Part shown: positions 37,664 through 53,561 of the stretch, piece by piece
Layout of the letters: every line of letters begins with the position of its first letter
How positions within the stretch are numbered: the stretch's first letter is position 1
Source: Deltaproteobacteria bacterium
GTDB taxonomy: Bacteria; Myxococcota; Kuafuiibacteriia; Kuafuiibacteriales; Kuafuiibacteriaceae
Assembly: GCA_040218735.1 (NCBI GenBank)
Contig: JAVJQW010000007.1
Location: 96,001 to 160,000 of the forward strand
DNA: 64,000 bases
Direction: 5' to 3'
Program-made: the position numbers and the translations under genes
Notes under the pieces: model-generated
The model's input: the letters and a program-made list of their open reading frames with translations, nothing else
What the model was told of the DNA's origin: nothing
Databases searched by the model: none

Positions 37664-37667
37664 CCGA

Positions 37668-38499: not shown

Positions 38500-38525
<26 letters not shown>
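37668..38525 (-). CDS. Secreted/membrane TPR protein (myxobacterial type)
   Basis: Signal peptide, TPR helices (AIKLYK...YQRAAALF), two hydrophobic segments, C-terminal GGAQLGVVGRF; overlaps the kinase stop. Confidence 0.7.
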
Positions 38526-40020
<1,495 letters not shown>

Positions 40021-40137
40021 CCGCGCGCTGTAGTTGCCCCCCGCAGGCTCCACGCCTTGAGCCTATGTCAGGCAGCGAAAGGTGTCATGATCCACACCTT
40101 TACTTCCCCCTACACGTCGGGAACGCTCCTGCACCCG

Positions 40138-40977
40138 ATGCCCGAGCTGCCCGAAGTCGAACGAGGACGAAAGATCGCGGAGGGCGCTGCGCTCGGTAAA
40201 CGCGTGATCGCCTGCGAAGTCGACGAAAACGACGACATCGTGTTCGACGGCGTCGATCCCCTCGCGGTCGCCGAGCTGCTGAAGGGCGCGCGGGTCACGG
40301 CCGTGCGGCGCCACGGCAAGCAGCTGTGGTTCGAGCTCGACCGTAGGCCATTCGTCCTCTTCCACTTCGGGATGACGGGTGCGTTCGTCGTCCCGAACGT
40401 CGCGCCGCTGGTCCTGGAGTCCACGCCGAAGAAGCAGGACCTGAGCTGGCCGCCGCGCTTCTCGAAGATTCGCATGACCTTCGACGACGGCGCGGAGCTC
40501 GCGATGGTGAACAAACGGCGCCTCGGTCGCATCCGACTACGCGAGCGCCCGGAGGAGGAGTCGCCGATCCGCGAGCTCGGCTTCGACCCGTACCTGGAGC
40601 TCCCGAAGCTCGCCGACTTCCGAGCGCTCCTCGCGCGGCGCAGCGTTACACTGAAAGGATTGCTCCTCGATCAGTCCTTCGCCGCGGGGGTCGGCAACTG
40701 GATCGCCGACGAGGTCCTCTACCAGGCGAAGCTCGATCCGCGCCGCAAGGTCGACGCGCTGTCCGCCGCCGAGCAGAAGGCGCTACACGGCGCGCTGAAG
40801 AAGGTCGTGCACAAGGCCGTCGCCGTGGAGGCCGACAAGACGCGCTTCCCGAAGAACTGGCTGTTCCACCGTCGCTGGGGCAAGGACAAGGACGCGGTGA
40901 CGGTCGCGGGCGATGCGATCGTGCACGCGACGATCGCGGGGCGCACCACGGCGTGGGTGCCCGCGGTGCAGAAGTGA
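40138..40977 (+). CDS. mutM: Fpg/Nei-family DNA glycosylase lacking the Cys4 zinc finger
   Basis: N-terminal MPELPEVE, RHGK, HFGMTG, H2TH LLDQSFAAGVGNWIADEVLY; C-terminus GRTTAWVPAVQK has no Cys. Confidence 0.9.
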   Translation: MPELPEVERGRKIAEGAALGKRVIACEVDENDDIVFDGVDPLAVAELLKGARVTAVRRHGKQLWFELDRRPFVLFHFGMTGAFVVPNVAPLVLESTPKKQDLSWPPRFSKIRMTFDDGAELAMVNKRRLGRIRLRERPEEESPIRELGFDPYLELPKLADFRALLARRSVTLKGLLLDQSFAAGVGNWIADEVLYQAKLDPRRKVDALSAAEQKALHGALKKVVHKAVAVEADKTRFPKNWLFHRRWGKDKDAVTVAGDAIVHATIAGRTTAWVPAVQK

Positions 40978-41039
40978 CCGAGGGCGCGTGAGACCCGGCA
41001 CGCTGGACTAAGTCTCGCGAGTGCGTTTGTTGGACGGTC

Positions 41040-41540
41040 GTGACCCCCCTCTTTCTCCTCGCGACGCTCGCCCTGACGGCCACCCCCGAGTCGCTCGTCT
41101 TCGTCGGCGACGCGTCGGTCGACATCGAGGGCATCTACGAGAAGGCGTTCACCAAGCAGCGGCTCGACGTCACGCTCACCAAGACCGACGACGGGTGGCT
41201 CGTCGCCTACGAAGGCAACGGCGTCGCCTGCCGCGTGAAGGCGACGGGGCCGCGCGACGCGATCGTGATCGCGCCGAAGCAGTCGTGCACCACGAAGGTG
41301 AACGATCGCGAGCACCGCGGAACCCTGGTCGCCTACGCGATCACCGGCACGCTGCGACGCGACGCCGACGGCAACGAGACCTTCGCGCTGTCCGCGCGCC
41401 TGCGCGCCGAGGACGCCTCGCGACACGTCCGGAAGGAGACGGTGCTCGGCACGATCGACACCTGGCTCCCGCTCGGCACACGCAGCGGGAGCGGGCGCTT
41501 CAAGGGAACACGTCCGCGCTCCGAGTCGTCGACCGATTGA
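41040..41540 (+). CDS. Hypothetical secreted protein
   Basis: Signal-like N-terminus, two Cys, beta-rich; fills the gap between Fpg and rffA. Confidence 0.55.
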   Translation: MTPLFLLATLALTATPESLVFVGDASVDIEGIYEKAFTKQRLDVTLTKTDDGWLVAYEGNGVACRVKATGPRDAIVIAPKQSCTTKVNDREHRGTLVAYAITGTLRRDADGNETFALSARLRAEDASRHVRKETVLGTIDTWLPLGTRSGSGRFKGTRPRSESSTD

Positions 41541-41542
41541 GC

Positions 41543-42667
41543 TCAGACGACGTCGAGCACGGCGGCGGCGATGGCGTCGACGGTGGCGTCGTCGATGCCG
41601 ACCCACAACGGGAGCCGGACGAGGCGCGCCGAGAGGTCGTCGGTGTGTTCGAGCGAGCCGCTGGTTCGACCGAAGCGTTTCCCGGCCGGCGAGGAGTGCA
41701 GGGGGACGTAGTGGAAGACGGCCATGTAGCCGTCGTCGCGCAGGCGCTTGATGACGTTCGTCCGCACGTCGAGCGACTCCGCGAGCACATAGTACATATG
41801 GGCGTTGTGCACGCGACCGTCCGGGATGATCGGCCGGCGCACGCGACCGTCCGCCTCCGCGGCGGCGAACGCGTCGTGGTAACGGCGCCAGATCTCCAGG
41901 CGTCGATCCGTGATCCCACGCGCCGACTCGAACTGCGCCCACAAAAACGCCGCGACGACCTCGCCGGGGAGGAACGAGGAGCCGACGTCGACCCACGTGT
42001 ACTTGTCGACGTCGCCGCGGAAGAACGCGCTGCGGTTGGTGCCCTTCTCCCAGACGATCTCCGCGCGCTCCGCGAGCTCCGCGTCGTTGATCAACAGCGC
42101 GCCGCCTTCACCCGAGATGATGTTCTTCGTCTCGTGAAAGGAGAGCGCGCCGAGCGAGCCCATCGTGCCGAGCGCGCGGCCTTCGTAGCTCGCGAGCGCG
42201 CCCTGGGCGGCGTCTTCGATCACCATGATCCCGCGCGCGTTCGCGATCTCGAGGATCGCGTTCATGTCGCAGCCGACGCCCGCGTAGTGCACGACGACGA
42301 TCGCCTTGGTGCGTTCGGTGATCGCGGCTTCGATCTTCGACGGGTCGACGTTCAAGCAGGACGGCTCGACGTCGACGAACACCGGGACCCCGCCGCGGAG
42401 CACGAACGCGTTCGCGGTGGACACGAACGTGTACGAGGGCATCACGACCTCGTCGCCGGGCTCGATGCCCGCGAGGATCGCGCACATCTCGAGCGCGGCG
42501 GTGCACGAGTGGGTGAGGAGCGCCTTGTGCGTGCCGGTCGTGTCCTCGAGCCACTTCTGGCAGCGCTTCGTGAACTGACCGTTGCCGGCCGTCTGCCCCG
42601 CTTGGATGGCCTCCTGGATGTACTGGAGCTCCAGGCCCGTCGCGTACGGTTTGTTGAACGGGATCAT
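41543..42667 (-). CDS. rffA: dTDP-4-amino-4,6-dideoxygalactose transaminase
   Basis: MIPFNKP, SCTAALEM, TFVSTANAF, EDAAQ, SFHETKN (PLP Lys), EKGTNR, VFHYVPLH. Confidence 0.93.
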   Translation of the reverse strand: MIPFNKPYATGLELQYIQEAIQAGQTAGNGQFTKRCQKWLEDTTGTHKALLTHSCTAALEMCAILAGIEPGDEVVMPSYTFVSTANAFVLRGGVPVFVDVEPSCLNVDPSKIEAAITERTKAIVVVHYAGVGCDMNAILEIANARGIMVIEDAAQGALASYEGRALGTMGSLGALSFHETKNIISGEGGALLINDAELAERAEIVWEKGTNRSAFFRGDVDKYTWVDVGSSFLPGEVVAAFLWAQFESARGITDRRLEIWRRYHDAFAAAEADGRVRRPIIPDGRVHNAHMYYVLAESLDVRTNVIKRLRDDGYMAVFHYVPLHSSPAGKRFGRTSGSLEHTDDLSARLVRLPLWVGIDDATVDAIAAAVLDVV

Positions 42668-42704
42668 CGGCCCCAACATATCCGGGGCCCGCGCGCCGGT
42701 CGAC

Positions 42705-45482
42705 TCAGGAGCCCATGATCTCGTCCATCAGGAGATCGCCGAGCATTCGCGGCAGCTTCTCGGTGTTCTCGACCACCATGCTGTGCTCGTACGTCGTCGG
42801 CACCTGCTGACAGCCGGCGCCGATCCCGATCCCGATGATCTTGATGTCGGTCTCCTGAGCGACGGTGCGCACGGCCTGGTTGTGGTTCGCGACCGCCGCG
42901 CCGTCGGAGAGGAAGATGACGATCTTCTGCTCGGCCGGGCTGTCCTCCAGCATCTGCCGCGCGGCGTCGAGCGCGGCCGTGTCGTTGTTGCCGCCACCGC
43001 CGCGGAGCTTCCCGAGCATCTGCTCGCGCTCCTCCTTGGACTTGTCCTCCTCGATGGGCTTCAGGACCGAGACGCCGCTGTTGTACATCACGACGCCGTT
43101 GCCAACGCCGATCTCGCCGAGCGACTCGAGGAACACCACGAACGCCTCGCGCGCGAACTCCATCTTGCTGTTCGCGCCGTTACCCATCGAGCCGGAGCAG
43201 TCGATGCAGAACACGACCTCGACGCTTCGCTCGCGCGGCTCGTCGCGCTTGAGGAAGATCCGCGGGTCGCCGCGCCCCGTCGCCTGCCGTCGGAACTCAC
43301 TCTGGATCGCCTTGCGGAGATCGTAGACGCCGCCGCGGAAGTGACCGATCAGCTCCGGGATGTCGTCGCGCTGGAAGAAGTTCGTCAGCTCGTCGACCAT
43401 CTCCTGGATCGCGCGTTTGTGTTTCTTGGCGATCTGGTCGTAGGCCGTGAGGTGCGTCCCGTCGTCGCGTCGGTTGCGGATCTTGTCGTCGTAGGTCTTG
43501 AGCAGCTCGTCGAGATCGACCTCGTCGTCCCCGTCGTAGCCGAGCTCGGGCGACGCGCCGGACGCGCCGGTCGTCTCCCACTCACGCTCCGTGACTTTCG
43601 GTCCACCGCTGCGGCCGACGTCCTGGTTGCCGACGTCGCCCGGGTCGTAACCCTCGCGGTCGAGCTCGGCGTCGTGGATCTTGCCGCCCATGTCGCGCGC
43701 GTCGCTCCGTAGCGACTTCGCGAGGGCCTCCTTCGCGGCCTTCGTCGCGGCGTCGTCGGTGTCCTGCACCTCGAGCGGGTTGTCGGGGATCGTGTCGACG
43801 TCGATCGGGTCCTTCCCGTCGGCCGCCATCCCGTGCTCGCCCGTGGGGCGCCCGCCGTTCGCGGCCTTCGAGCCCGCCTTGGCGTCGCCGTCGCTCGGCT
43901 CCGCCGTCCCGGAGCCGCCGCCGCCCGCACCCTCGGACGCCTCGGCGCCCTGCGCGTTGCCGTTGCCGCCGGCGCCTTGCGACTCGCCGCTCCCGTTGGC
44001 TTGCCCCTGGCCGCTGCCCTGTGCGCCGCTCGCGTCGTCGCCGCCCTGCGCGCCCTGCGCATCGCTGCCACCCTGCGCGCCGCCGGCGTCCTGCGCGTCA
44101 CCGGGCTGTTCGCCGCCCTGCGCGCCGCCGGCGTCGTCTGCGCCGTTGGCGTCGTCGCCGCCCTGTGCACCGTTGGCGTCCTGCGCGCCATTGGCGTCCT
44201 GCGCGTCGTCTGCACCGTTGGCGTCGTCGGCGTTCTGCGCGCCGTTCGCATCGTCGGCGTTCTGCGCATCTTCGGCGCCGTTGGCGTTCTGCGCGTCGTC
44301 GGCGCCGTTGGCGTTCTGCGCGTCTTCGGCTCCGTTCGCGTCTTCGGAGCCGTTGGCGTTCTGCGCGTCGTCGGCGCCGTTGGCGTCGTCGGCGTTCTGC
44401 GCGTCGTCTGCGCCGTTGGCGTTCTGCGCGTCGTCTGCGCCGTTGGCCTCGTCGCCGTCCTGCGCGCCCTTCGTGTCCTGCGCGCCGTTCGCGTCGTCGC
44501 CCTTCTTGTCGTCCGCGCCCTGCGACGCATCACCGCTGTCGCGAGAGGACTGCTCCTGCCCGGGCACGTCGGGCGAGGCCTGCTTCTGGGCGTCGAGCCC
44601 GTCCTGCACGTCCTGGTCGAGCAGGCGCTTGTAGATCGGCCAGATCTCGTCGCGGATCACCTCGAAGGAGTGCGCCGCTTCGACGTCCGCCTCCGTCCCG
44701 TCCAGCTCGTCGAACCGCAGGTCGATGTCCGGCGGCAATCGCGTCGCCTTGGCGATCGCGTCGCGCGCTTCGTCGAGCGCCGCGATCACGTCCGGGTCCT
44801 TCACCATCGGATCGCGATCGCCGCCGCTCGCCCACTCGTAGATCGCCGCGAACCCGAACTGCTTCGACTTCGGGACCGTCTTCCCCTGCGCCGCGAACTT
44901 GTCGTACTGCTCCTGCCGTTTCTCCAGATCCAAGAAGTCGCGGTACAGCTCCTTCATCATGATCGGGACGCCCGCGTAGCGCCGGCTGATGATCCGGTTG
45001 ATCCGGATGTCCTCGAGCGAGTTCCACAGGAAGTGGAACGCGGGGTTCTTGATCCGGTCGTCCTTCGGGAGCCGCGAGTACAGCCGGTGCGCGAGCTCGT
45101 GGCAGATCACGCCCATGTTGGAGCGATCGTTTCGCTTCAACATGTCCTTCACCGGGTACGTGATCTTGTTCGAGTCGAAGTGGTACGCCCACCAGCCGCC
45201 GGGCTCCAACTTCATCGAGAAGTCCTTGCCCAGCGTCCGCGCGAGCGTCGAGAGCCGGCGGTGCATCTGCTCCTGCCGACGGAAATCCAACGTCGGATCC
45301 CCGGCGACGCCGCCGTCCTCGTCGAGCTTCGGCACGACCGGGACGGTTCCGTGGAGTCGGCGCTCGAAGCCGCCCTTCACCCCCTGCATCCCCGTCGCGG
45401 CGCGCCGAACGTCGAGCACCGAAGTCCGCGCGTTGCCGAGGTTCACGCCGCGCGTAGGTCCCTTGCCGATCGTGACCATCAC
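42705..45482 (-). CDS. vWA/MIDAS protein with HExxH metallopeptidase-like domain and acidic repeat linker
   Basis: ICHELAH...NSLEDIRI; ~250-aa D/A/N/Q/G-rich linker; C-terminal VVFCIDCSGSM...GGGNND...IFLSDG...IIGIGIG; GTG start overlaps the upstream stop. Confidence 0.88.
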   Translation of the reverse strand: MMVTIGKGPTRGVNLGNARTSVLDVRRAATGMQGVKGGFERRLHGTVPVVPKLDEDGGVAGDPTLDFRRQEQMHRRLSTLARTLGKDFSMKLEPGGWWAYHFDSNKITYPVKDMLKRNDRSNMGVICHELAHRLYSRLPKDDRIKNPAFHFLWNSLEDIRINRIISRRYAGVPIMMKELYRDFLDLEKRQEQYDKFAAQGKTVPKSKQFGFAAIYEWASGGDRDPMVKDPDVIAALDEARDAIAKATRLPPDIDLRFDELDGTEADVEAAHSFEVIRDEIWPIYKRLLDQDVQDGLDAQKQASPDVPGQEQSSRDSGDASQGADDKKGDDANGAQDTKGAQDGDEANGADDAQNANGADDAQNADDANGADDAQNANGSEDANGAEDAQNANGADDAQNANGAEDAQNADDANGAQNADDANGADDAQDANGAQDANGAQGGDDANGADDAGGAQGGEQPGDAQDAGGAQGGSDAQGAQGGDDASGAQGSGQGQANGSGESQGAGGNGNAQGAEASEGAGGGGSGTAEPSDGDAKAGSKAANGGRPTGEHGMAADGKDPIDVDTIPDNPLEVQDTDDAATKAAKEALAKSLRSDARDMGGKIHDAELDREGYDPGDVGNQDVGRSGGPKVTEREWETTGASGASPELGYDGDDEVDLDELLKTYDDKIRNRRDDGTHLTAYDQIAKKHKRAIQEMVDELTNFFQRDDIPELIGHFRGGVYDLRKAIQSEFRRQATGRGDPRIFLKRDEPRERSVEVVFCIDCSGSMGNGANSKMEFAREAFVVFLESLGEIGVGNGVVMYNSGVSVLKPIEEDKSKEEREQMLGKLRGGGGNNDTAALDAARQMLEDSPAEQKIVIFLSDGAAVANHNQAVRTVAQETDIKIIGIGIGAGCQQVPTTYEHSMVVENTEKLPRMLGDLLMDEIMGS
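44020..44500 (-). repeat. Intragenic 27/18-nt tandem repeats encoding (ANGADDAQN/D)n
   Basis: Plus-strand unit gcgccgttggcgttctgcgcgtcgtc(t/g) recurs many times with variants. Confidence 0.9.
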
Positions 45483-45892
45483 TCGACCTCACTCGCCGGA
45501 GCGACCGTCGCGCCCTCGGCCGACATCACCATCGGGAACATGGACGCCACCGGCTCGTCCGGTCGCGCCGGCGCGAGCGCCACCACGCGGAGGTCGTCGC
45601 GCACCGTCCCGTCGACGAGCTGTCCCTCCAACACCTGGGACAGCACGCCGCGCGTCGCGTCGTCGACCGACGCGCCGAGCCACACGAGGAGCGTCGAATC
45701 CTCCGCGATGCGCTCGGACACCGCCTGGTCGAGGTCGGCCTCCGACAGCTCGTCCGTCCGCAGATCGAGTGGCCGAGCGCCGGGCAGGCCCGCGCGGAGC
45801 GCGCGGTGCACGGCCTCGTTCGCGCCGAAGATCAACACGGAGCTGCGGCTGCGCAGGATCGTGTCGAGGAGCGTGGAACCCGCCGTACTCAC
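45479..45892 (-). CDS. Small protein resembling a degenerate AAA+ P-loop core
   Basis: GTGA overlaps with both neighbours; SVLIFG, LLVWL, GVLSQVLEG...LRVVALA follow AAA strand order but without GKT or DE. Confidence 0.65.
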   Translation of the reverse strand: MSTAGSTLLDTILRSRSSVLIFGANEAVHRALRAGLPGARPLDLRTDELSEADLDQAVSERIAEDSTLLVWLGASVDDATRGVLSQVLEGQLVDGTVRDDLRVVALAPARPDEPVASMFPMVMSAEGATVAPASEVE

Positions 45893-48800
45893 TTCGCGAT
45901 CTCCTGTGCCTTCTCGAGGATGACGTCGTTGTCTTCGTGGTGGCTCGATGCTGCGTACGTCGCCTGCACCGCGAGCAGGTACGCCGTCGCCGGGCCGAGC
46001 TCGCCGGAGAACTCCGAGACGAGGTTCGTCGCGTTCATCAGCTGCCGCACGGAGTAGACGGGGCGGTCACGCTCGCGCATGTCCTTGCCGAGGGTCTCGT
46101 CCTCGTACGCCGACTGAATCCACATGTGCAGATCCACGAGCGTGTCGGTGATCGCCTCGCTCACGCCCTTCGCCTTCCCGAGGGCGCGCAGGATCTCCTT
46201 CTGCTCGTCCGCTTCGTCGAGGTCCGGGACCGCGATCATCGTGAAGCGGTTCTGCATCGCCTTGCTGAGCTTCGAGCGCCCGCCGTACTCCTTCGTCGGC
46301 GGGTTCATCGCCGCGATGAACCTGAACTGCGGGTGCAGGCGAACCTCCTCGCCCTCCTTCTCCGCGAGGACGATCTTACGTTCGTCGTCGAGCACGGAGT
46401 TGAGGCGCTCGAGGAGCGCCGGGTTCGCGAGGTTGAACTCGTCACCCACGAACACCCCCGGGACGTTCTCGGGGCGCGCCGCGTCGAGGAGGAGGCCGTC
46501 CTTCCAGCCCGTGTCGTCGTAGCCGCCGATCAGCTGCATGCCGTCCGTCGAACCCGAGAGCAGCTGCCGCTGGTACGGCTGTCCGCGGAGCATCGCGAAC
46601 ATCTTGGCCATCGCCGTCTTGCCGGACGCGCGCGCGCCGACCATCGCGACGTTCTCACCCATGTCGAGCGCCTTCGCGAGGCGGTACATGATCTGCGTCG
46701 TCCGCTTCGTCATCACCAGCCGCGCCGACTCACCCGGGACGAGCGCGTGCTCCGCGTTCACCTTCGCGAGCGTGACGTCGCCGATCGTGAACGTGTCCTT
46801 GTCCTCCTTCAGCTCGAGGTCCTCGTAGAAGTCCGGTCCGGTGTACGGCATCGCCGCGGTGAGGATGTCCTTCACCGTCTGCACGTCTTCGGGATCGAAC
46901 AACCCGCCGAGGTAGAGCTCCTCGACCTCACGACGCATCGCCGCTTCGTCCGAGAGCTCCCCACCGCTGTAACGCACGAACCGATCCGCCGCGCGGAACA
47001 GGTTGCGCAGCGTGAACGCCACGCCGCCGCTCTGGCGCCCGATCTCACCCTCGTCCGCGAGACGCGAGAGGTTGTCGTGCACCGCGACCAGCTTCGCCAT
47101 CTCCTCCGTGGGGAGCTTCGAGCCGTAGACCGTGCTCATGATCTGCGTGAGATCCGAGCGGGTGAGCCCGTGCGCGAAGACGTTGTTCCAGCGCGATCGC
47201 ATCGCGTCCGACAGACGCGCGCGCCCCGAGTACGACGCGGGGTTCATCGTCGCGAACAGCCGGAAGTTGTCGTCCGGCGCGATGACCTCGTTGTGGTGCT
47301 CGGTGAGGACCACGTTGCCGTCGTCGTCGAACAGCGAGTTCAGCCGCTCGAGCACCTCCGGTCGCGCGAGGTTCATCTCGTCGAGGAGAAGCACCTCGCC
47401 CTTCTTCATCGCGCGGATGACGGGACCGTCCACCCAACGCGGCTTGAGCTGCGCGGCGAGGATCTGATCCGAGGCGACTTCGCGCGAAGCACCTTCGGGC
47501 ACGCCGTACTCTTCGGACACCGCGGCGAGCTCGGCGTCGGACATCTTGTCGAGGTCCGGCTTGCTGTACCGGTTCTCACCGCCCACGTACTTACCGAGGA
47601 GGTCCGAGACATCCGTGAAGTACGACAGGTTGATCCGGCGGTACGGCGAGTTGGTCTTGTACGCGAGGTACCGAACCGCGGACGTCTTGCCGGAGCTCGT
47701 CGGACCCTCGAGGAGGACCGGGCGCTTCTGCCGCCACGCCGCGGCCATCAGCTTCAGGTTGAGCTGCGTGGTCCGCGTCATCACGAGATCCGAGTGCTGC
47801 TTGCGCGGCACTGCGCGCGTGTCGCGATCCGTACGCGAGTTCTCGGCGACCTCGACGCCGGCCACCGTCACCGTCTTCGTCCCCTCCGGGAACGGACGCT
47901 TCGCCTCGAACAACGCCGCGGCCACGCCGCCGAGCTCCTGGTCGGCCTGCGCGAGCGGGAGCACGTTGGCGAGGTCCGCCTGGTACAGCTGACCGAGCGC
48001 CGTCCGCGCGAGCGCTTCGACGTCCGCGAACTTGCCGCCGTCGAGGACACCCTCGACGAGCGCCTTGGCGGCGTCGTCCTTCTTCGCGACGCCGGCCTTG
48101 ATGTGCGCGGTCACCGCGCCCTCGACCTTCGAGAGCGCCTCGGGCGCGAGGAGCGCGACCGTCTCCGGACGCAGCGCAGCGCGGAGGTTTTCGAGGGCCC
48201 CCTCGTCGGCGTCGGCCTTCGCCTTCAGGAAGTCGATGATCGTCTTCCGCTTGGCGCTGCCTTCCTTCGCCGCGGCCGCCTCGTCGAGGAGCGCCTCGTA
48301 GAGGCCGACCGGATCGGCCTCTGCCGATGCGTCGTGGAGGGTCTCGAGGTCCTTGGTCGTCACCTCGCTCCCCGTGAGCGCCGCGCGGATCGGGAGGCTC
48401 GTGAAGTCCGCCTCGTCGCGGATGCTCAGGAACGGCGCGAGCGTCGTGCGGAGCTCCTCGCCGCTCATGCCCTGGAGCTTGCCGGCGACGTTCGCCCAGG
48501 CCTTCGCGCTGTCTTCGTCTACGCCTTCGCGCTCCAGGGCCGTCTGGATTCGGTCGGGGGAGATTCGCGTCGTCAGCGCCAACAGGATCGGACCGACGAC
48601 CACGTGCGGCCACGCGTCGAGCACGTTCTCTGCGATCGACAGCTGCGCCTCGATGTTCACGCCCGACATCGAGCCCGGCTCGAGCTTGCCGTCGGCGATG
48701 GCGTCGATGACGCGCGGGAGGAGCTCGGACAGCTCCGGTCGCTCGTCGTCCCACGCCAACATCCCCAGCACGGCGTTGCGACGCTGCGCGTGCGAGACGT

Positions 48801-51063
48801 CGGCGGCTGGATCGAGCGCAGCGAAGTGTTCGTCGAGCTTCGTCTTCGCGGCCTTCGACAGCGAGTCGGGGCGGCGCAGCGCCTTCATCCGCGGGTCGTC
48901 GGTCAGCGGGTAGTTCGTCCCGTCCTGCCGATACAATCGAACGTGCTCGAAGTCGACGCTGGCGGCCTTCGCCATCCGCGCGATCTGCGGGATCGTGTCG
49001 TCCAGCACCATGTTGTACGGGACCTGCGCGAGGAACGCCTGCGCTTGCGCCTGCGCCTGGTTGCCGTCGGGCAGCTTCCCATCGGCGGCGAGCTCGACGA
49101 TTCGAGCGACGGCCGTGAACGCACGCGCGTCACTGCCGTAGTGGTTGAACCAGCTGCTCGGGTTCCCGACGTTGTACATGTCGCGCGCGAGCGCTTCGTC
49201 CGACGCCTCGAAGAGCTTGGGGTCGCGCGCCTGGTACGCGGCGTTCGCGTCCGGGTGGTTGCCGAGCGGCTTTCCTCCCGGGACGTCGTACTGCACGACG
49301 CGCTGGCGCGGGACCTCGCCCATCGCCCCCGCGCGGAGCTGCGCGAGACGTGACTGTCCCGCCTTGAACGCGCCGACCTGTCCGAGCGTCACGCCGACCG
49401 TCGTCGACCAGTTGATGGCCTGCGCGCCGAGGCCGGCCTTCTCGACGAGGCGCGCGACGTGCGCCATCACATCGGCGTCGTTGACCAGCGAACCCTGGAT
49501 GCGCTGCTGCACGAAGTGTTGCAGGTAGGTCGCGTCGAACTGCCCCAGCTCGATGCCGCGCTCCCAGAGCTTCAGCACGCCGACCGTCCAGCCCTTGTCC
49601 TGCGCCGAGTCGTTCGTCGACGGGAAGTGGTACGGGGACTGGTAGGTCGAACGGACGTGCGCGACCGACGCGTCGTCGATCGCGAGCGCGCTCGCGTCGT
49701 AGACGCCGAAGCGCTGCTGTACGACCTGCGCGTTCGCGAGGCTCTCGGTCCCGGCGGGGCGCTTCCCGAGCTCGACGCGCACGCGTCCGCCCGCGGTGGG
49801 GAGCGGGCGACCGTGGAACTCGGTCGACTCGATCGCGTGCTCCGCACCCGCCGCGGCCATCGCGCGCGCGAGGACCGCCGCCGCTTCCTCGGTGTCGGGG
49901 AGGACCTGCGCGATGGCCGGCCAGTCGGTCATCGGCGCCGGGTTGCCGACCTCGGCGAGCCGGGCCCACAGGCGGAGCATCGCGACGCGCACCTCGCCCG
50001 TCTTCGGCTCACCGAGCCGGACCAGCCGGTTGTCGTTCATGAAGCTCTCGTAGTTCTGCCAAGTCTGGGCGAGCGACCGCACCGCGTCGTCGCTGAGCGC
50101 GAGCTGGTCGACCTGCCCGGCACGCGCCGCGTTGATGACCGCTTGGTTGTTTCCCGTTTGCGTCCCCAGGGCTTCGCTCCGCTCCACCGTGCTTCGACGC
50201 CGGGCGCGCTTCGACGTGGCCTCGGGTAGCTGCGGCCCCCACTCGGAGAGCGGCGCGCCGTGGAAGGTCACGTTCGCGGGGTCCTCACCGCGCGCCTTCA
50301 CCAGGCGAAGCGCGACGGAAGCGCCCTCGTCGGTCTTCGGGAGCCGCGCGAGTGATTGCGCCCAGTTCGTGACGTTGCACCCGTTCTGGTTCGTGAGGCC
50401 GAGCTCGTTGACGCGGGCGAAGATCCTGAAGTGCGCGATTACCGTCGGTTCGTCCCTCGCTTCCGCCAGCGCTTGCTCGAGGTTGTTCCACCAGGAGGGG
50501 GAGATCTGCGTCCGGATGGTGTCGTCGTCGATCGCGAGTTTGTCGGCGTTACCGCCCTGCCGCGCGAAGTTGATAAGGTTGGTCGCGTTGTCCGCGGTCG
50601 TTCCGAGCGCCTCGGCGGGCTCGGCTTCGAACGGTTTGACGAAGTCGACCGACGCGCGGAGCAGGTCCGCGAGATCCTCCGGCACCGAGACGTCGCCCAA
50701 GAACTCGGCGATCGCGCGGAGCAGCTCTGGGTGGTCCGCCATGCGGCGCGCGACCTTCAGAGACGGGTAGTAGTTGCGCAGCGACGCCTGCGGATCGATC
50801 CCGGTGTTGGCGACGCGACCGCCGAACGTCATCTTGGTCGACGCCTCGGCCCGCGCGACCTGGAGCAGCTTCTTCGCCTTCGCCAGCCCGACGTCGTGCT
50901 CGAGCTTCCCGGCCGGCTCCGAGAAGAAGAGCTGGCCGTCCGACACGAAGATGTCCCCACGGTCGGGCGTCGCGCGGACACGCGCCGCGTTCTGCGCGCC
51001 GTCCGTGCCTTCGAGTCGAGCGGTGGGTCGGGGGTCGATGCGACCTGGAATGGAGGTGGTCAT
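45889..51063 (-). CDS. Giant AAA+ ATPase with two tandem midasin/dynein-related (AAA_5) modules and novel N-terminal repeats (start may be 51090)
   Basis: Module 1: GPTSSGKT, LLLDEMNLA, FATMNP, AMRSRW. Module 2: GARASGKT, FVGDEFNLA, IAAMNP, AMQNRF. Confidence 0.92.
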   Translation of the reverse strand: MTTSIPGRIDPRPTARLEGTDGAQNAARVRATPDRGDIFVSDGQLFFSEPAGKLEHDVGLAKAKKLLQVARAEASTKMTFGGRVANTGIDPQASLRNYYPSLKVARRMADHPELLRAIAEFLGDVSVPEDLADLLRASVDFVKPFEAEPAEALGTTADNATNLINFARQGGNADKLAIDDDTIRTQISPSWWNNLEQALAEARDEPTVIAHFRIFARVNELGLTNQNGCNVTNWAQSLARLPKTDEGASVALRLVKARGEDPANVTFHGAPLSEWGPQLPEATSKRARRRSTVERSEALGTQTGNNQAVINAARAGQVDQLALSDDAVRSLAQTWQNYESFMNDNRLVRLGEPKTGEVRVAMLRLWARLAEVGNPAPMTDWPAIAQVLPDTEEAAAVLARAMAAAGAEHAIESTEFHGRPLPTAGGRVRVELGKRPAGTESLANAQVVQQRFGVYDASALAIDDASVAHVRSTYQSPYHFPSTNDSAQDKGWTVGVLKLWERGIELGQFDATYLQHFVQQRIQGSLVNDADVMAHVARLVEKAGLGAQAINWSTTVGVTLGQVGAFKAGQSRLAQLRAGAMGEVPRQRVVQYDVPGGKPLGNHPDANAAYQARDPKLFEASDEALARDMYNVGNPSSWFNHYGSDARAFTAVARIVELAADGKLPDGNQAQAQAQAFLAQVPYNMVLDDTIPQIARMAKAASVDFEHVRLYRQDGTNYPLTDDPRMKALRRPDSLSKAAKTKLDEHFAALDPAADVSHAQRRNAVLGMLAWDDERPELSELLPRVIDAIADGKLEPGSMSGVNIEAQLSIAENVLDAWPHVVVGPILLALTTRISPDRIQTALEREGVDEDSAKAWANVAGKLQGMSGEELRTTLAPFLSIRDEADFTSLPIRAALTGSEVTTKDLETLHDASAEADPVGLYEALLDEAAAAKEGSAKRKTIIDFLKAKADADEGALENLRAALRPETVALLAPEALSKVEGAVTAHIKAGVAKKDDAAKALVEGVLDGGKFADVEALARTALGQLYQADLANVLPLAQADQELGGVAAALFEAKRPFPEGTKTVTVAGVEVAENSRTDRDTRAVPRKQHSDLVMTRTTQLNLKLMAAAWRQKRPVLLEGPTSSGKTSAVRYLAYKTNSPYRRINLSYFTDVSDLLGKYVGGENRYSKPDLDKMSDAELAAVSEEYGVPEGASREVASDQILAAQLKPRWVDGPVIRAMKKGEVLLLDEMNLARPEVLERLNSLFDDDGNVVLTEHHNEVIAPDDNFRLFATMNPASYSGRARLSDAMRSRWNNVFAHGLTRSDLTQIMSTVYGSKLPTEEMAKLVAVHDNLSRLADEGEIGRQSGGVAFTLRNLFRAADRFVRYSGGELSDEAAMRREVEELYLGGLFDPEDVQTVKDILTAAMPYTGPDFYEDLELKEDKDTFTIGDVTLAKVNAEHALVPGESARLVMTKRTTQIMYRLAKALDMGENVAMVGARASGKTAMAKMFAMLRGQPYQRQLLSGSTDGMQLIGGYDDTGWKDGLLLDAARPENVPGVFVGDEFNLANPALLERLNSVLDDERKIVLAEKEGEEVRLHPQFRFIAAMNPPTKEYGGRSKLSKAMQNRFTMIAVPDLDEADEQKEILRALGKAKGVSEAITDTLVDLHMWIQSAYEDETLGKDMRERDRPVYSVRQLMNATNLVSEFSGELGPATAYLLAVQATYAASSHHEDNDVILEKAQEIAK

Positions 51064-51236
51064 CCTTAAAGCGCCTACATCGGATGACATTACGGCTGCG
51101 GAAAATTCGCAAGTGACCGCGGCTGACGATGTTTGAGCGGCGTATCCGCCAAGTGCGCGAAACGACTGGGCGGAGAAGTTGCTAGAAAATACGGCGCCTG
51201 AATACGTAGGACAACGGGCGCTGCGCGGCTGCGCGA

Positions 51237-52205
51237 TCAGGTGCGCTCGGCGGGTGACCCGTGGTCAGCCCACGTTCGCTCGCGGACGATGAAGATCGGG
51301 CGACGCTTCACCTCGGTGAAGATGCGATCCACGTACAGGCCCAGGACGCCGAGCGTGAAGATGATCGCGCCCGTCGAAAAGTTCAGCGACACCATCAGCG
51401 ACGGCCACCCCATCACCGGGCTGCCGTACACCAATGCGCTGAAGAACAGGTACGCGCCCCCGAGCACCGACAGACCCGCGAGCGCGATCCCCAACCCCAC
51501 GCAGAGGCGCAGCGGTTTGTTCGAGTAGGCGAGGATGATCGGGATCGCCATCCGGAACAGCTTGAGGAGTGTGTACGACGACTCACCCGCGTGTCGCGTC
51601 GCGTGTTCGACGTCGATGTACGCCTTCTTGAAGCCCATCCAGTTGAGGAACCCGCCGTAGAAACGCACGGCTTCTTCCATCTGCAGGAGCTGCCGCACGA
51701 CCTGCCGCGACACACACGAGAAGTTCGCGACGCTGCCGTCGTAGTTCAGGTCGGTGAGGTAGTTGAACGTGGCGTAGAACATCACGGAGCTCATCTTCTT
51801 GCTCCACTTGTCCTGACGCTGCGCGCGCCGCGCGAGCACCACGTCGAAGCCCTCCTGCGCCTTCGCGTACAGGCGCGGGATCTCTTCGGGGCGATCCTGG
51901 AGGTCGCAGTCCATCACCACGATCCAGTTCCCGCGCGCCGATGCGAGGCCCGCGGTGATCGCCGGGTGCTGCCCGAAGTTGCGCGACAGCTGCTGCCCGC
52001 GCACGCGCGGATCCTTCGCGGCGATCTCTTGGATGCGCGCCCACGAGTCGTCCGGGCCGCAGTCCTCCGTGAGGATGATCTCGAAGTCCTCGGTGATCGT
52101 CTCGAGGTTTTCGACGAGCCGGCGGTGCAGCTCGTCGAGGCACCCGGCGCCGGCGTAGACCGGCACGACGACGGAGATCTCCAGCCGGTCGTCGGGCTCG
52201 GCCAT
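51237..52205 (-). CDS. Glycosyltransferase family 2 (GtrB/ArnC-like polyprenol-phosphate glycosyltransferase)
   Basis: ISVVVPVY, LSRNFGQHPAITAGL, MDCDLQDRPE, two C-terminal TM helices, EVKRRPIFIV. Confidence 0.9.
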   Translation of the reverse strand: MAEPDDRLEISVVVPVYAGAGCLDELHRRLVENLETITEDFEIILTEDCGPDDSWARIQEIAAKDPRVRGQQLSRNFGQHPAITAGLASARGNWIVVMDCDLQDRPEEIPRLYAKAQEGFDVVLARRAQRQDKWSKKMSSVMFYATFNYLTDLNYDGSVANFSCVSRQVVRQLLQMEEAVRFYGGFLNWMGFKKAYIDVEHATRHAGESSYTLLKLFRMAIPIILAYSNKPLRLCVGLGIALAGLSVLGGAYLFFSALVYGSPVMGWPSLMVSLNFSTGAIIFTLGVLGLYVDRIFTEVKRRPIFIVRERTWADHGSPAERT

Positions 52206-52247
52206 CGCGATCCAAGTCTTAGCGGAAATGAGCGGAGCGTTCACGTT

Positions 52248-53555
52248 TTAGCCGTCCTCGCGCCGCCAACGGTCCCAGCCCAGGACGATGACGTACGCCG
52301 CAAACGCGCACAGGAACAGGTAGACCGGCTGGGAGTAGCGCGGCTCCGTGCTGTGCAGCGGAAGGAAGATGAGCGTGTTGTAGACGATGGGGATCGCGAG
52401 CCACGCGAGCCAGGAGCGCCGCCAGACGGAAATGAGCAGCCCCGCCCACCCCAGCAGAACGATCGCGCTGTTGATCGCGAACAGCGCCGCCTTGAAGACC
52501 CACCACGCGGGTGCGCCGTAGGCGAGGAAGCTCGGCCGGAAGCTGAACACGTCGAAGCGCGTGCCGAACCACATCTGCGGGGCGCGGTAGAGCCAGCGCC
52601 CGAGCACCGCGAACGGCTCTTCGCGGTAGCGGTCGAAAGCCAGCTTGCGCATCGCTTTGTCACGCGGCGCGTCCTTCAGCTTCAGCGCGTCCTCGACCTC
52701 CGCCTTCTCGTCCGGGGTGCGGAACGAACCCGCGGGGGGGCCATCATCGAAGCCGCCCTTCACGAGCCAGTCGCCGTTCGTCTCCCACGTCCCGATCCAC
52801 AGCCCCTGTCCGAGGATGCCCTTGCTCACCGGGATGATCTGTCCGGAGACGTGGTGGTTGCGCGCCGTCCACGGGGCGATCGCGAGGATCGCGCCGCACA
52901 CGAGCAGCGCCGCAGAGCCCAGCCTTCTCTTGAGTGGAATCTCCTCGACCCACCCGTGCACGAAGTCGAACGGGAGCAGCACCGCCGTGAACGGGATCAG
53001 CGCGAGGTACACGTCTCGCGTGAGCGCGGCGAGGCCGAGCAGCGCACCCATCCCGAGCCACGCCGCGCGGTGTTTCCACAGCACGGGGAGGGCGACCGCG
53101 GCGACGAGGAAGAACGTCGTCAGCGTCTCGGAGAGCATCGCGCCCGCGTAGACCGCGTTGGCGGGGACGAGCGCGCCGAGCCACAGCGTCCACCGCGCGA
53201 TGCGCGTGACGAGGAGCTCCACCGTCTTCGCGCAGAGGACGACCGTCGCGGTGCTGATCACGACCTGCGCGAGCTGCACCGCGAGCGGCGCGCGCCACAC
53301 GCGGTAGAGGAGCGCGACGAAGCCGGGGAACAGCGGCGGCCGGTAGTACGTCGGCGCGATCGGCGGCTCGAGCGACAGCGAGAACGTCCCGTGGTCGACG
53401 AGGTTCTTCGCGAGGTGGTCGTACCAGAAGCTGTCGCCGGTATCGAAGCGGTAGGCGACCAGCACCAACATCACCAGACGCACCGCGAGCGCGACGACGA
53501 CCGCGAGCCAGACCTCGTTCCGATCGAGCCGGTACTGGGGGCCGTACGCACGCAC
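52248..53555 (-). CDS. ArnT/PMT-like GT-C membrane glycosyltransferase
   Basis: DSFWY, RPPLFP, LSETL, PWTARN, EPRY; multi-TM. Confidence 0.8.
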   Translation of the reverse strand: MRAYGPQYRLDRNEVWLAVVVALAVRLVMLVLVAYRFDTGDSFWYDHLAKNLVDHGTFSLSLEPPIAPTYYRPPLFPGFVALLYRVWRAPLAVQLAQVVISTATVVLCAKTVELLVTRIARWTLWLGALVPANAVYAGAMLSETLTTFFLVAAVALPVLWKHRAAWLGMGALLGLAALTRDVYLALIPFTAVLLPFDFVHGWVEEIPLKRRLGSAALLVCGAILAIAPWTARNHHVSGQIIPVSKGILGQGLWIGTWETNGDWLVKGGFDDGPPAGSFRTPDEKAEVEDALKLKDAPRDKAMRKLAFDRYREEPFAVLGRWLYRAPQMWFGTRFDVFSFRPSFLAYGAPAWWVFKAALFAINSAIVLLGWAGLLISVWRRSWLAWLAIPIVYNTLIFLPLHSTEPRYSQPVYLFLCAFAAYVIVLGWDRWRREDG

Positions 53556-53561
53556 CGGTCG

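Follow-up and report, generated by a model that had tools for sequence, protein, structure and literature searches.

Midasin (Mdn1/Rea1) and dynein are unusual in carrying six ring modules in one giant chain. The published view, as given in the accessible part of its source, derives the six tandem domains from a single-module MoxR protein at an early stage of eukaryotic evolution (PMC3495828). For Rea1, the accessible sections of the structural work locate the density of the MIDAS domain between modules AAA3 and AAA4 (Sosnowski et al. 2018, PMC6286127). The MoxR-vWA conflict systems form a further group, for which the available excerpt of Kaur et al. (2020, PMC7159879) describes an enrichment in bacteria that are multicellular, deltaproteobacteria included.

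We analyzed a bacterial locus that bears on these systems, situated in a 64,000-nucleotide stretch of a deltaproteobacterial contig (JAVJQW010000007.1, positions 96,001 to 160,000; here called the window). Its central gene, P0001, encodes a protein with a variable N-terminal region followed by a C-terminal pair of AAA_5 modules, M1 and M2 (Table 1). We are moderately confident that P0001 represents a fixed odd-even pair of midasin-type modules, found in a rare prokaryotic family and probably assembling into a trimeric six-module ring that works with a VWA partner. Pfam assigned AAA_5 to P0001 with an E value of 5.5e-39, a module profile search found two module starts only, and at least 30 two-module homologues were present among the matches listed. 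An earlier note on this DNA had recognized, at the motif level, two consecutive midasin-like modules in the span 45889-47800, which corresponds to aa ~1097-1733 of P0001. All the strings quoted there are present in the 1733-aa translation, i.e., PVLLEGPTSSGKT, RINL, LDEMNLA, FRLFATMNP, AMRSRW, and FTLRNLFR for M1; VMTKRTTQI, WKDG, LLERLNSVLDDERKIVLAEK, FIAAMNP, and YGGRSKLSKAMQNRFT for M2; and YSKPDLDKMSDAELAAV for the insert in M1.

Table 1. Features of the P0001-P0134 locus (positions are those of the window)
Feature	Position	Strand	Basis or remarks
Partner P0134 (925 aa)	42705..45482	-	N-domain, acidic disordered linker, C-terminal VWA with MIDAS
Partner VWA domain (aa 756-889)	42816..43217	-	Pfam VWA, E 6e-14; MIDAS DCSGS, aa 761-765
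Partner acidic low-complexity linker (aa 301-640)	43563..44582	-	D+E 22%, K+R 5%, pI 4.05
Partner N-domain (aa ~62-305)	44568..45299	-	HELAH, aa 128-132; possibly zincin-like fold (model)
P0135, 137-aa ORF	45479..45892	-	4-base overlap with each neighboring gene
P0001 gene (1733 aa)	45889..51090	-	ORF list and translation, Pfam, homologues
M2, even-type module (aa 1455-1733)	45892..46728	-	Seed HMM, Pfam, invariant residues, best profile match D4
M2 residues			Walker A GARASGKT aa 1485-1492; Walker B D1550 E1551; sensor-1 N1596; R1615; sensor-2 R1682
M1, odd-type module (aa 1099-1454)	46729..47796	-	Seed HMM boundaries, invariant residues, best profile match D3
M1 residues			Walker A GPTSSGKT aa 1129-1136; Walker B D1237 E1238; sensor-1 N1283; R1300; sensor-2 R1362
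M1 lid, AAA_lid_7 "Midasin AAA lid domain" (aa 1313-1413)	46852..47154	-	Pfam, 25.8 bits, cut-off 22.7
M1 helix-2 hairpin-tip insert (aa ~1174-1217)	47440..47571	-	Hairpin-anchor spacing, AlphaFold model
N-terminal region (aa 1-1098)	47797..51090	-	Family assignment: none

Across 25 aligned family members, both modules show strong conservation at their catalytic positions. The Walker A lysine (K1135 in M1, K1491 in M2), the Walker B Asp-Glu (D1237 E1238 and D1550 E1551), the sensor-1 asparagine (N1283 and N1596), and the arginine at the xRF/W position (R1300 and R1615) are all invariant, as is the sensor-2 arginine of M1 (R1362), its M2 counterpart (R1682) being kept in at least 90% of the members. 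This is consistent with the view, taken from the residues alone, that both modules are probably active. Their lids are of different types. The lid of M1 is that of midasin modules D1, D3, and D5, whose profiles extend into it in the alignment, while the lid of M2 (aa ~1643-1697) is of the D2/D4 type, matching AAA_lid_5 at 23.1 bits against a cut-off of 22.7, with no stretch counted by Pfam as passing alone; the lid types thus alternate along the chain, and both matches lie just above the Pfam cut-off. The module pair was modeled with a pLDDT of 89.2 and a pTM of 0.85 and shows a helix-2-insert AAA+ fold in which the hairpin strands flank the insert. The ~40-aa insertion that had been reported in the helix-2-insert region of M1 is real and correctly placed: 49 residues separate the hairpin strands (48 to 57 across 20 family members), where M2 has 3, midasin D3 has 8, and five MoxR proteins from the same genome have 9, and in the AlphaFold model the insert forms three short helices.

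P0001 most resembles midasin, and within midasin its third and fourth modules. In a PDB sequence search, midasin led by far, with E values of 1e-115 (M1) and 1e-76 (M2), compared to 6e-12 and 1e-4 for NorQ/CbbQ. Profiles of the individual midasin modules, built from 81 midasin fragments each with six modules, ranked D3 highest for M1 in 19 of the 20 family members and D4 highest for M2 in all 20; conversely, the family profiles hit D3 with M1 in 80 of the 81 midasins and D4 with M2 in 79, the margins of these reciprocal matches being about 17 to 43 bits. D4 was the best match for none of the 10 modules of P0017 and P0035, two prokaryotic multi-module relatives, and hence is no general attractor. 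The predicted M1-M2 pair also superposed best on D3-D4 of Schizosaccharomyces pombe Mdn1 (Z 25.6, rmsd 4.0, 27% identity over 495 aligned residues), with a Z of 21.1 on the same modules of Rea1. The M1 profile scored M2-type modules far below M1-type ones, and vice versa. The helix-2 insert pattern is reversed relative to midasin, with median spacings of 49 in M1 and 3 in M2 versus 8 in D3 and 69 in D4.

The phylogenetic analyses agree with the midasin type of both modules and are less specific about D3 and D4. A maximum-likelihood (ML) tree built from 79 modules supported the midasin-type clade at 100/99 and M1 and M2 each at 100/100. M2 joined D2+D4+D6 at 96/88, these three forming a group without M2 at 92/78, while M1 fell among the odd modules, beside D3. 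MoxR (AAA_3), bpMoxR, and CbbQ-type proteins were all outside the midasin-type clade; addition of the three CbbQ-type proteins left the placement of M1 and M2 the same, with an SH-aLRT of 75 for the monophyly of the clade in a quick tree. None of these trees contained dynein, RavA, or yeast or human Mdn1. The proposal that both modules are of midasin type, separate from the MoxR/CbbQ types and unlike each other, is thus borne out. The more specific match to D3 and D4, offered in the earlier note, is upheld by the reciprocal profiles and the superposition and not by the ML module trees, in which M2 lies outside D2+D4+D6 and M1 is beside D3 without being its sister. Approximately unbiased (AU) tests on single modules rejected neither M1+D3 (p 0.076) nor M2+D4 (p 0.18).

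No tree recovered the arrangement set against the midasin match in that note, with M1 and M2 as nearest relatives inside a MoxR clade. A recent internal duplication in a bacterial MoxR-type lineage, with a likeness to midasin that is convergent or generic, appears very improbable to us: although a clade of M1+M2 is not formally rejected (log-likelihood lower by 11.4, AU p 0.09), the two modules are apart in every tree, their lids belong to different Pfam types, each profile scores the other type far lower, and the MoxR and CbbQ types all branch outside.

Odd and even modules were also joined into pairs. In a tree of 35 such pairs, the prokaryotic ones, including the P0001 family, formed a group apart from midasin's three pairs (100/98), and the same split was supported at 98 in a quick search of 44 pairs. 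The stem of D3-D4 was the shortest of the three midasin pairs (0.74 versus 0.98 and 1.05 in the 35-pair tree), which accounts for the D3/D4 best-match behavior; the likeness to D3/D4 most likely mirrors the fact that D3-D4 is midasin's least changed pair. An exclusive clade of M1M2 and D3D4 was rejected (AU p 0.011) because the P0001 family groups with other prokaryotic pairs, and this test covers only a family+D3-D4 clade that leaves out those other pairs. Placing D3-D4 next to the prokaryotic pairs in the 35-pair set cost only 0.55 log-likelihood units (p 0.34), so the data are compatible with an origin of the family from a D3-D4-like pair. In the 79-module tree, P0017 and P0035 have their "odd" modules in the even clade, so the joining of odd and even modules may be mis-specified for these proteins. 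Overall, as far as these sequences go, the phylogenetic signal for placing M1/M2 and the prokaryotic pairs relative to the midasin pairs is weak.

These results bear on true orthology, i.e., a pair derived from D3-D4 of a six-module midasin-like ancestor, through the loss of four modules or an ancient transfer of a eukaryotic gene piece, which would make P0001 a midasin in reduced form instead of a pair of the ancestral type. We consider this unlikely. The reciprocal matches, the superposition, the AU tests that leave D3, D4, and D3-D4 placements standing, and a four-group pair tree in which the P0001 family adjoins D3-D4 (94/80) all argue for it, but D1-D2 and D5-D6 have long branches, and long-branch attraction may be what unites them in that tree. 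Against orthology, moreover, stand the positions of M1 and M2 in the free module tree, the grouping of the family with prokaryotic pairs, the short D3-D4 stem, the long helix-2 insert, which is in M1 here and in D2, D4, and D6 in midasin, and the location of the MIDAS domain on a separate protein. In our reading, P0001 is no fragment of a eukaryotic midasin, and the proteins closest to it are prokaryotic ones that carry four to six modules of this kind.

That separate protein, P0134, lies two genes downstream of P0001 in the window, and in all eight family loci the ATPase gene is directly followed downstream by one for a partner-type VWA protein. The MIDAS DxSxS motif and the later aspartate are invariant in 7/7 partner homologues, while the linkers differ among homologues in repeat type and length. 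Between the two genes, P0135 had no match in Pfam, NCBIfam, or PADLOC; a homologue with 34% identity occupies the same place in two of the eight loci. The idea that P0135 might be a degenerate AAA-like domain was dropped, as hhalign against the family alignment gave a probability of 0.5%. A complex prediction for the module pair with the VWA region, run on alignments made for this analysis, scored 0.58 compared to 0.01 for the best control, lending weak support to the partnership; of 157 solved complexes, 116 attained the mark applied, as did 2 of 215 mismatched pairs, and scores of up to 0.60 were those of 18 of the 157 solved complexes and of both passing mismatches. The runs shared at least 62% of contacts, with a partner pLDDT of at least 73. 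Similar complexes have been solved (NorQ-NorD and the Mdn1 ring with its MIDAS domain), so the pass may reflect the predictor's prior knowledge of them.

The N-domain of the partner was modeled with a pLDDT of 79 to 98 per 10-residue block over aa 71-300. It had no match in Pfam and none in Foldseek at an E of 0.001 or below; the top Foldseek rows were small metallopeptidases, at E 0.23 to 0.35, and the HExxH motif is absent in the three Oligoflexales homologues. A metallopeptidase function, suggested by this model, is only a lead.

CobT and ChlD have a layout of N-domain, acidic stretch, and C-terminal VWA, and that of P0134 matches it. A chaperone for metal-cofactor insertion or enzyme reactivation, acting on a specific metalloenzyme like CobS-CobT, NorQ-NorD, or CbbQ-CbbO, was considered on this ground. 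Consistent with such a role, P0134 has a weak Pfam CobT_C match (E 2e-4), 20% of the members of one matching Atlas cluster have CobT, CobS is among the weaker PDB and NCBIfam matches of M1, and NorD is the best of the weak PDB relatives of the VWA region (E 0.002, with the midasin MIDAS domain at E 0.029). The modules nevertheless group with the midasin type in trees that leave the CbbQ type outside, P0001 has no Pfam match to CbbQ_C, its large variable region is unlike the small chaperones of the CobS/NorQ/CbbQ kind, and no metalloenzyme or cofactor genes adjoin it in the window. We regard this role as distinctly improbable.

The P0001 family is rare and patchy. Among 401 genomes of the phylum, 7 carry it, scattered across families; its hosts are Myxococcota and Oligoflexales, and a locus search with the family alignment returned nine loci while one with the P0001 protein alone returned none. 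The N-terminal region of P0001 had no match in Pfam or NCBIfam, and the Atlas gave nothing usable. It is homologous in close relatives only (39% identity across 1052 aa with the homologue at locus L031), and other domains take its place elsewhere in the family; according to precomputed Pfam lists, some members have LRR, MORN, or discoidin domains outside the pair, which is itself sometimes N-terminal. Repeats suspected by eye within the N-terminal region were discarded, self-BLAST giving none at E 0.01. No single-module relatives of M2 were apparent among proteins of 161 to 513 aa in a search that relies on shared 5-residue words; its 12 matches all came from contigs of at most 3.6 kb and mostly look like truncated fragments of the P0001 family. 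The genes flanking the locus in the window include a glycosyltransferase, a methyltransferase, and an aminotransferase. No target of the ATPase-VWA couple could be identified from the neighboring genes.

Such a distribution would also fit a MoxR-vWA conflict or defense system, in which the variable region would sense an invader, the ATPase-VWA couple would be a threshold switch, and the partner's HExxH domain would serve as a peptidase effector. The enrichment pattern in the excerpt of Kaur et al. (2020, PMC7159879) points the same way, as do the varied regions outside the pair, a tandem second copy at one locus (L034), and the HELAH motif of the partner with its nonsignificant metallopeptidase rows. 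In PADLOC-DB 2.0, however, P0001 drew no more than two weak P-loop matches (E 3.5e-4 and 6.4e-4), and the partner and P0135 had no match; a third component of the VMAP or iSTAND type is not recognizable, neither phage genes nor those of mobile elements were noticed alongside, and the HExxH motif is missing from the three Oligoflexales homologues. On balance, we find a defense role unlikely.

We return to the favored reading, an odd-even pair that probably works as a ring with its VWA partner. By analogy with the six-module-ring habit of the wider family, three P0001 chains would form a ring in which M1 and M2 alternate. The ATP site of M1 would be completed in cis by an arginine of M2, and that of M2 by M1 of the adjacent chain. 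The VWA partner would dock on this ring and grip a target via its metal site, ATP hydrolysis would then pull on or remodel the target, as in NorQ-NorD, CbbQ-CbbO, and midasin, and the variable region outside the pair may select the target or the site of action.

It is possible, and we suggest it tentatively, that the two-module family is a surviving form of the odd-even pair from which six-module rings arose by triplication, several times in prokaryotes (in the lineages of P0141, P0017/P0137, and P0138/P0035) and once toward midasin, the trimer of pairs with its separate acidic-linker MIDAS protein thus being a "split proto-midasin." Gene conversion among the pairs within one protein could mimic independent triplications. 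If this scenario is true, the midasin ring plan and the MIDAS partnership originated in prokaryotes, contrary to the view found in the accessible part of PMC3495828. The P0001 pair is a candidate intermediate in the history of the ring, and its prokaryotic relatives with four to six modules, beside which it stands, include an archaeal one. The ~640-aa pair and its separate MIDAS protein would also provide a small, expressible model for the cooperation between alternating modules and MIDAS, midasin itself, at ~5000 aa, being harder to handle. The likeness to midasin has already been noticed in annotation, one source naming fragments "midasin"; our literature search found no description of two-module prokaryotic midasin-type proteins.

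Compared to known systems, P0001 shares with midasin the AAA_5 modules, the midasin-type lids, the alternation of odd and even types, and the association with a MIDAS/VWA domain preceded by an acidic disordered stretch. It keeps all motifs, as do the active sites AAA2 to AAA5 of Rea1 in the accessible sections of PMC6286127. Midasin, however, has six modules per chain where P0001 has two, and P0001 is without midasin's linker domain. The stretch rich in D/E and the MIDAS domain are part of the ring chain in midasin and reside here on P0134, which adds a domain with HExxH at its N-terminus. The long helix-2 insert belongs to the even modules D2, D4, and D6 in midasin and to the odd-type M1 in the P0001 family. 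Midasin is a eukaryotic protein of pre-60S ribosome assembly, whereas P0001 is bacterial, with no known ribosome-assembly context.

The prokaryotic multi-module relatives, comprising P0017, P0035 (Candidatus Omnitrophica), P0137, P0138, P0141 (a Thermoproteota archaeon), and a 4107-aa ORF from the P0001 genome (contig C58), have modules of the same type and are the closest to the family in the pair trees. P0035, P0137, P0141, and the C58 ORF contain a VWA domain or DxSxS motif. Unlike P0001, these proteins join four to six modules and VWA in one chain of 2800 to 7600 aa and have extra insertions between Walker B and sensor-1; they are annotated merely as "AAA family ATPase" or "MoxR-like ATPase." The pair also superposes on two neighboring ring modules of the dynein motor (Z 22 to 24 over ~520 to 530 residues), and P0001 has weak matches to Pfam dynein P-loop models, but the identity is merely 13 to 18% and P0001 is without stalk, linker, or microtubule-binding parts.

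The single-module MoxR-class ATPases with VWA partners (NorQ-NorD, CbbQ-CbbO, RavA-ViaA, and CoxD-CoxE) follow the same logic of an ATPase gene paired with a VWA gene, and one P0001 module superposes on CbbQ with a Z of 22.5 (rmsd 2.2) and on NorQ with a Z of 21.8 (rmsd 2.0). They are, however, one-module chains of ~260 to 500 aa that form homohexamers and are without midasin-type lids, whereas P0001 has two unlike modules. Conjointly, P0001 and P0134 fit the broad MoxR/midasin-VWA kind in their helix-2-insert fold and conserved adjacent MIDAS gene, and differ in having two modules per chain.

The motif strings quoted in the earlier note were all recovered in the translation of the 1,733-aa ATPase gene (P0001), in which Pfam detects AAA_5 (E value, 5.5e-39) and a lid domain behind each of two modules, M1 (aa 1099 to 1454) and M2 (aa 1455 to 1733). 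The module starts were set by a seed profile around the P-loop, and the N-terminal 1,098 aa matched no model in Pfam or NCBIfam. In an alignment of the P0001 pair (M1 plus M2) with 24 homologues, the Walker A Lys, the Walker B Asp-Glu, the sensor-1 Asn, and the Arg at the xRF/W position were invariant in both modules across the 25 sequences, while the sensor-2 Arg never varied in M1 and was kept in at least 90% of the sequences in M2. The kept motifs agree with the suggestion that both modules are probably active. The window (G+C, 64 to 72%) belongs to contig C6; the whole genome comprises 11.6 Mb in 70 contigs, and the closest named relatives of the ATPase gene are in Myxococcota assemblies.

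Features of the two-module ATPase operon and of a midasin-like ORF elsewhere in the same genome
Feature	Position	Strand	Details
ATPase ORF, 1,733 aa (P0001)	45889-51090	-	ORF list and translation; AAA modules in 3' third
AAA_lid_7 ("Midasin AAA lid domain")	aa 1313-1413, behind M1		Pfam, 25.8 bits (cut-off, 22.7)
AAA_lid_5 (also "Midasin AAA lid domain")	aa 1643-1697, behind M2		Pfam, 23.1 bits (cut-off, 22.7); no single stretch passes
137-aa ORF (P0135)	45479-45892	-	Overlaps ATPase gene and partner gene by 4 bases each
Partner ORF, 925 aa (P0134)	42705-45482	-	4-base overlap with 137-aa ORF
Partner N-domain	HELAH at aa 128		pLDDT 79-98 per 10-residue block over aa 71-300 (model)
Partner linker			340 aa, low complexity; D+E 22%, K+R 5%, pI 4.05
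Partner VWA domain	DCSGS at aa 761		Pfam, E 6e-14
4,107-aa ORF, same genome	contig C58:46646-58966 (= L030:2647-14967)	+	Several AAA_5, AAA_lid_7, two C-terminal VWA matches; outside window

The earlier note had likened M1 to D3 and M2 to D4 of the six midasin (Mdn1/Rea1) AAA modules, D1 to D6. Midasin was by far the best sequence match in the PDB (E values, 1e-115 for M1 and 1e-76 for M2), followed by NorQ/CbbQ (6e-12 and 1e-4). Single-sequence comparisons left the module assignment ambiguous, as M1 aligned to D3 in two separate pieces (33 and 56 bits) and to D4 in one piece of 73 bits running across both inserts, and the top match of M2 was D3 (67 bits). The question of similarity was settled by profile comparisons, for which D1 to D6 profiles were built from 81 six-module midasin fragments (partial gene models that include the ring), while the family of two-module ATPases like P0001 supplied the M1 and M2 profiles. 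D3 was the top profile for 19 of 20 M1 sequences (mean, 134.8 bits; next, D5 with 117.3) and D4 for all 20 M2 sequences (107.8 bits; next, D2 with 79.1). Conversely, the M1 profile scored highest on D3 in 80 of the 81 midasins (mean, 176 bits; next best, 133) and the M2 profile on D4 in 79 (135 bits; next, D3 with 111). D4 was top for none of the 10 control modules from the longer prokaryotic proteins P0017 and P0035.

The lids were also compared. The D1, D3, and D5 profiles reach into the M1 lid and the D2 and D4 profiles into the M2 lid, of which the D3 and D5 profiles end short. In one midasin fragment, Pfam finds AAA_lid_7 three times (best behind D1), AAA_lid_5 behind D2, and MDN1_4th behind D4; the remaining two AAA_lid_7 stretches presumably follow D3 and D5. 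An AlphaFold model of the pair (25 aligned sequences as input; pLDDT, 89.2; pTM, 0.85) superposed best on Schizosaccharomyces pombe Mdn1 residues 866 to 1498 (Z, 25.6; rmsd, 4.0; 495 residues; 27% identity) and also on Rea1 residues 1055 to 1681 (Z, 21.1), both of which correspond to D3-D4 according to the domain positions from the PDB sequence matches. Dynein gave Z scores of 22 to 24, and CbbQ and NorQ superposed on one module only (Z, 21 to 22.5).

Phylogenetic relationships were examined in a module tree of 79 modules and 309 columns (IQ-TREE, LG+C20+F+G4 by PMSF). It comprised both modules of 12 family members, all six modules of each of six midasins (from three fungi, one plant, one flatworm, and one diatom), and P0017 and P0035; the source genome supplied the outgroups, namely five MoxR (AAA_3) proteins, two bpMoxR proteins, and two further AAA_5 proteins. 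The sequences were taken from database searches only, and the trees are without yeast Mdn1, human Mdn1, dynein, and RavA. The topology obtained was (outgroups,(D1,(D5,(D3,(M1,((P0017/P0035 modules),(M2,(D6,(D2,D4))))))))), with ultrafast bootstrap/SH-aLRT support of 100/99 for the midasin-type clade, 100/100 each for M1 and M2, 96/88 for M2 with D2, D4, and D6, and 92/78 for D2, D4, and D6. These positions identify M1 as odd type (like D1, D3, and D5) and M2 as even type (like D2, D4, and D6). The shape was unchanged in a quick tree of 115 modules and in another quick tree with three CbbQ-type proteins added; these were sister to the midasin-type clade, which has an SH-aLRT of 75 by itself and 93 together with them. 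In none of the module trees were M1 and M2 each other's closest relatives within a MoxR-type clade, the outcome that would have told against the midasin comparison, and neither fell in the MoxR or CbbQ clade. The module data are weak for finer grouping questions: approximately unbiased (AU) tests rejected neither M1 with D3 (log-likelihood loss, 6.4; p-AU, 0.076), nor M2 with D4 (9.3; 0.18), nor M1 with M2 (11.4; 0.09). The proposed D3/D4 match is real and specific as a similarity, in profiles and superposition, but the sister grouping is absent from the module trees, even if the AU tests tolerate it.

To double the data, each pair was entered as a single row joining its odd and even modules (612 columns). 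In the 35-pair tree, all prokaryotic pairs (two-module family, P0017, and P0035) lay apart from D1-D2, D3-D4, and D5-D6 (100/98), with stems of 0.74 for D3-D4, 0.98 for D1-D2, and 1.05 for D5-D6, the last two being long branches that call for caution. The module tree groups the "odd" modules of P0017 and P0035 with the even clade, and pairing them may therefore be mis-specified. A quick search of 44 pairs, with the six-module P0137, P0138, and P0141 added, gave the same prokaryotic/midasin split (SH-aLRT, 98), with the two-module family sister to the remaining prokaryotic pairs (98) and the three pairs of P0141 in one group (100), although gene conversion inside one protein could imitate such independent triplications. 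True descent of the pair from a D3-D4-like pair seems unlikely to us. An exclusive clade of the two-module family and D3-D4 was rejected (log-likelihood loss, 18.9; P = 0.011), which mostly mirrors the tie of the family to other prokaryotic pairs; in a careful search of 30 pairs without P0017 and P0035, D3-D4 grouped with the family and D1-D2 with D5-D6 (94/80), and the alternative joining D1-D2 with D3-D4 was not rejected (P = 0.15). With all 35 pairs, having D3-D4 adjoin the prokaryotic pairs costs only 0.55 log-likelihood units (P = 0.34). Most simply, the two-module family is read as part of a prokaryotic radiation of midasin-type pairs, with D3-D4 fitting best as the least changed midasin pair. 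Overall, the feature is real and the earlier interpretation stands in part: the pair is an odd-even unit resembling two consecutive midasin modules.

The insertion reported in M1 was correctly placed in the helix-2-insert region, as indicated by residue counts between the two hairpin strands and by three short helices inside the insert in the AlphaFold model. There are 49 residues between these strands in M1 (48 to 57 across 20 family members) and, as medians, 3 in M2, 8 to 11 in midasin D1, D3, and D5, 120 in D2, 69 in D4, 96 in D6, and 9 in five MoxR proteins that the source genome encodes. Midasin thus carries its long helical inserts on the even modules (named AAA2L-, AAA4L-, and AAA6L-H2alpha for Rea1 in PMC6286127), whereas the two-module family carries its own on the odd-type M1, a reversed pattern.

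A word-indexed search with the pair returned 256 matches; the 120 listed included 30 two-module proteins of 1,040 to 1,907 aa, the named ones from "Deltaproteobacteria" and Archangiaceae assemblies, the others listed being mostly midasin fragments plus a few longer prokaryotic proteins. Scanning all 1.84 billion representatives yielded 6,444, 2,553, and 861 proteins at E values of 1e-3, 1e-10, and 1e-30, respectively. Among its best 150 rows, 30 covered the query with one or two stretches and represent the two-module family, fragments included, while the other 120 had 8 to 15 stretches and lengths of about 2,000 to 7,600 aa. No single-module relative was found among proteins of 161 to 513 aa (12 matches, all on contigs of at most 3.6 kb); most of these look like truncated fragments of the two-module family, and several are labeled "midasin (ATPase involved in ribosome maturation)" in one source. 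The pair was present in 7 of 401 sampled genomes of the phylum, counting the source genome, spread over several families; the named loci comprise five Myxococcota or "Deltaproteobacteria" assemblies and three contigs from two Oligoflexales assemblies. In four members (P0025, P0027, P0028, and P0031) the AAA pair is N-terminal and precomputed Pfam lists give LRR and MORN repeats, presumably behind it; for another, P0024, the list gives a discoidin (F5/8 type C) domain. The region outside the pair is thus exchanged from one member to another.

The gene for a VWA-domain partner lies directly 3' of the ATPase gene in all eight family loci; a ninth locus, a distant Cyclobacteriaceae match (27 to 28% identity), is without it. 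The DxSxS motif and later Asp of the partner VWA domain are invariant in seven of seven homologues. Foldseek placed small metallopeptidases at the top for the partner N-domain with E values of just 0.23 to 0.35, and the HExxH motif is changed or gone in the partners of the three Oligoflexales loci. Linkers vary among homologues in repeat type and length. At two loci (L031:12252-15325 and L032:12282-14774) the partner gene is split into two ORFs in different frames, with the break within the repetitive linker, and L031 has masked letters in the linker repeat; errors of assembly or frame may arise easily in this repeat region. The 137-aa ORF belongs to no recognizable family and has a homologue in two of the eight loci (34% identity); the three Oligoflexales loci have no room for it because their partner gene and the end of their ATPase gene overlap. 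A Myxococcaceae assembly (L034:2160-11935) has two tandem copies of the ATPase gene, which flank the VWA partner gene, and another genome, G212, likewise has two matches on one contig. The flanks of the operon (36542 to 42679 and 51237 to 54548, minus strand) encode a DegT-type aminotransferase, a Ser/Thr protein kinase, a family-2 glycosyltransferase, a methyltransferase, and a GDSL-like lipase (scoring under the Pfam cut-off), together with several ORFs lacking a Pfam match.

Complex prediction with the pair and the last 286 aa of the partner, run on custom alignments, scored 0.58 against 0.01 for the best control. Of 157 solved complexes, 116 pass the mark used, as do 2 of 215 mismatched pairs; only 18 of these solved complexes, but both passing mismatches, score at most 0.60. 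Runs shared at least 62% of contacts, and partner pLDDT was at least 73; since like complexes are solved, the predictor may be reproducing known structures. The prediction hints that the VWA region of the partner may bind the pair. According to PMC6286127, the MIDAS density of Rea1 is located between AAA3 and AAA4, the pair that M1-M2 most resembles, suggesting where contact might occur.

We infer function from NorQ-NorD, CbbQ-CbbO, and midasin, whose established ATPase-VWA behavior is described in PMC13036017, PMC7159879, and PMC6286127 and from which every mechanistic step is carried over. One chain contains two unlike modules with intact motifs and a variable region outside the pair, and the conserved partner combines a MIDAS motif with a linker that is acidic and disordered. 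Three such chains would form a ring with M1 and M2 alternating, the M1 site being completed by the M2 arginine of the same chain and the M2 site by the M1 arginine of the next. The VWA domain would dock on this ring and grip a client via its metal site, and ATP hydrolysis would then pull on or remodel the client. The operon might serve in cofactor insertion or, alternatively, in conflict or defense, although no PADLOC model matched.

Four to six midasin-type modules together with a VWA domain occur in other prokaryotic relatives, namely P0035 (Candidatus Omnitrophica), P0141, and the C58 ORF of the source genome. P0141, P0137, P0138, and P0142 are giants that span 3,157 to 7,557 aa and contain five or six midasin-type modules; a DxSxS motif is present in three of these proteins. 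The six-module P0141 is labeled "AAA family ATPase [Thermoproteota archaeon]," and six-module midasin-type proteins with a VWA motif thus occur in archaea too. By its domain matches, the 4,107-aa ORF on contig C58 has a single-chain midasin-like layout; its modules have very long branches in the 115-module quick tree. No description of two-module prokaryotic midasin-type proteins was found in the literature searched, in which subscription journals were thinly covered. The two-module family bears on the origin of six-module rings and offers a small model for midasin-like mechanics. Zhang and Aravind (2012, PMC3495828) name MoxR as the prokaryotic homologue nearest to the domains of dynein and midasin; the two-module ATPase with its VWA partner is a new form of the MoxR/midasin-VWA systems.
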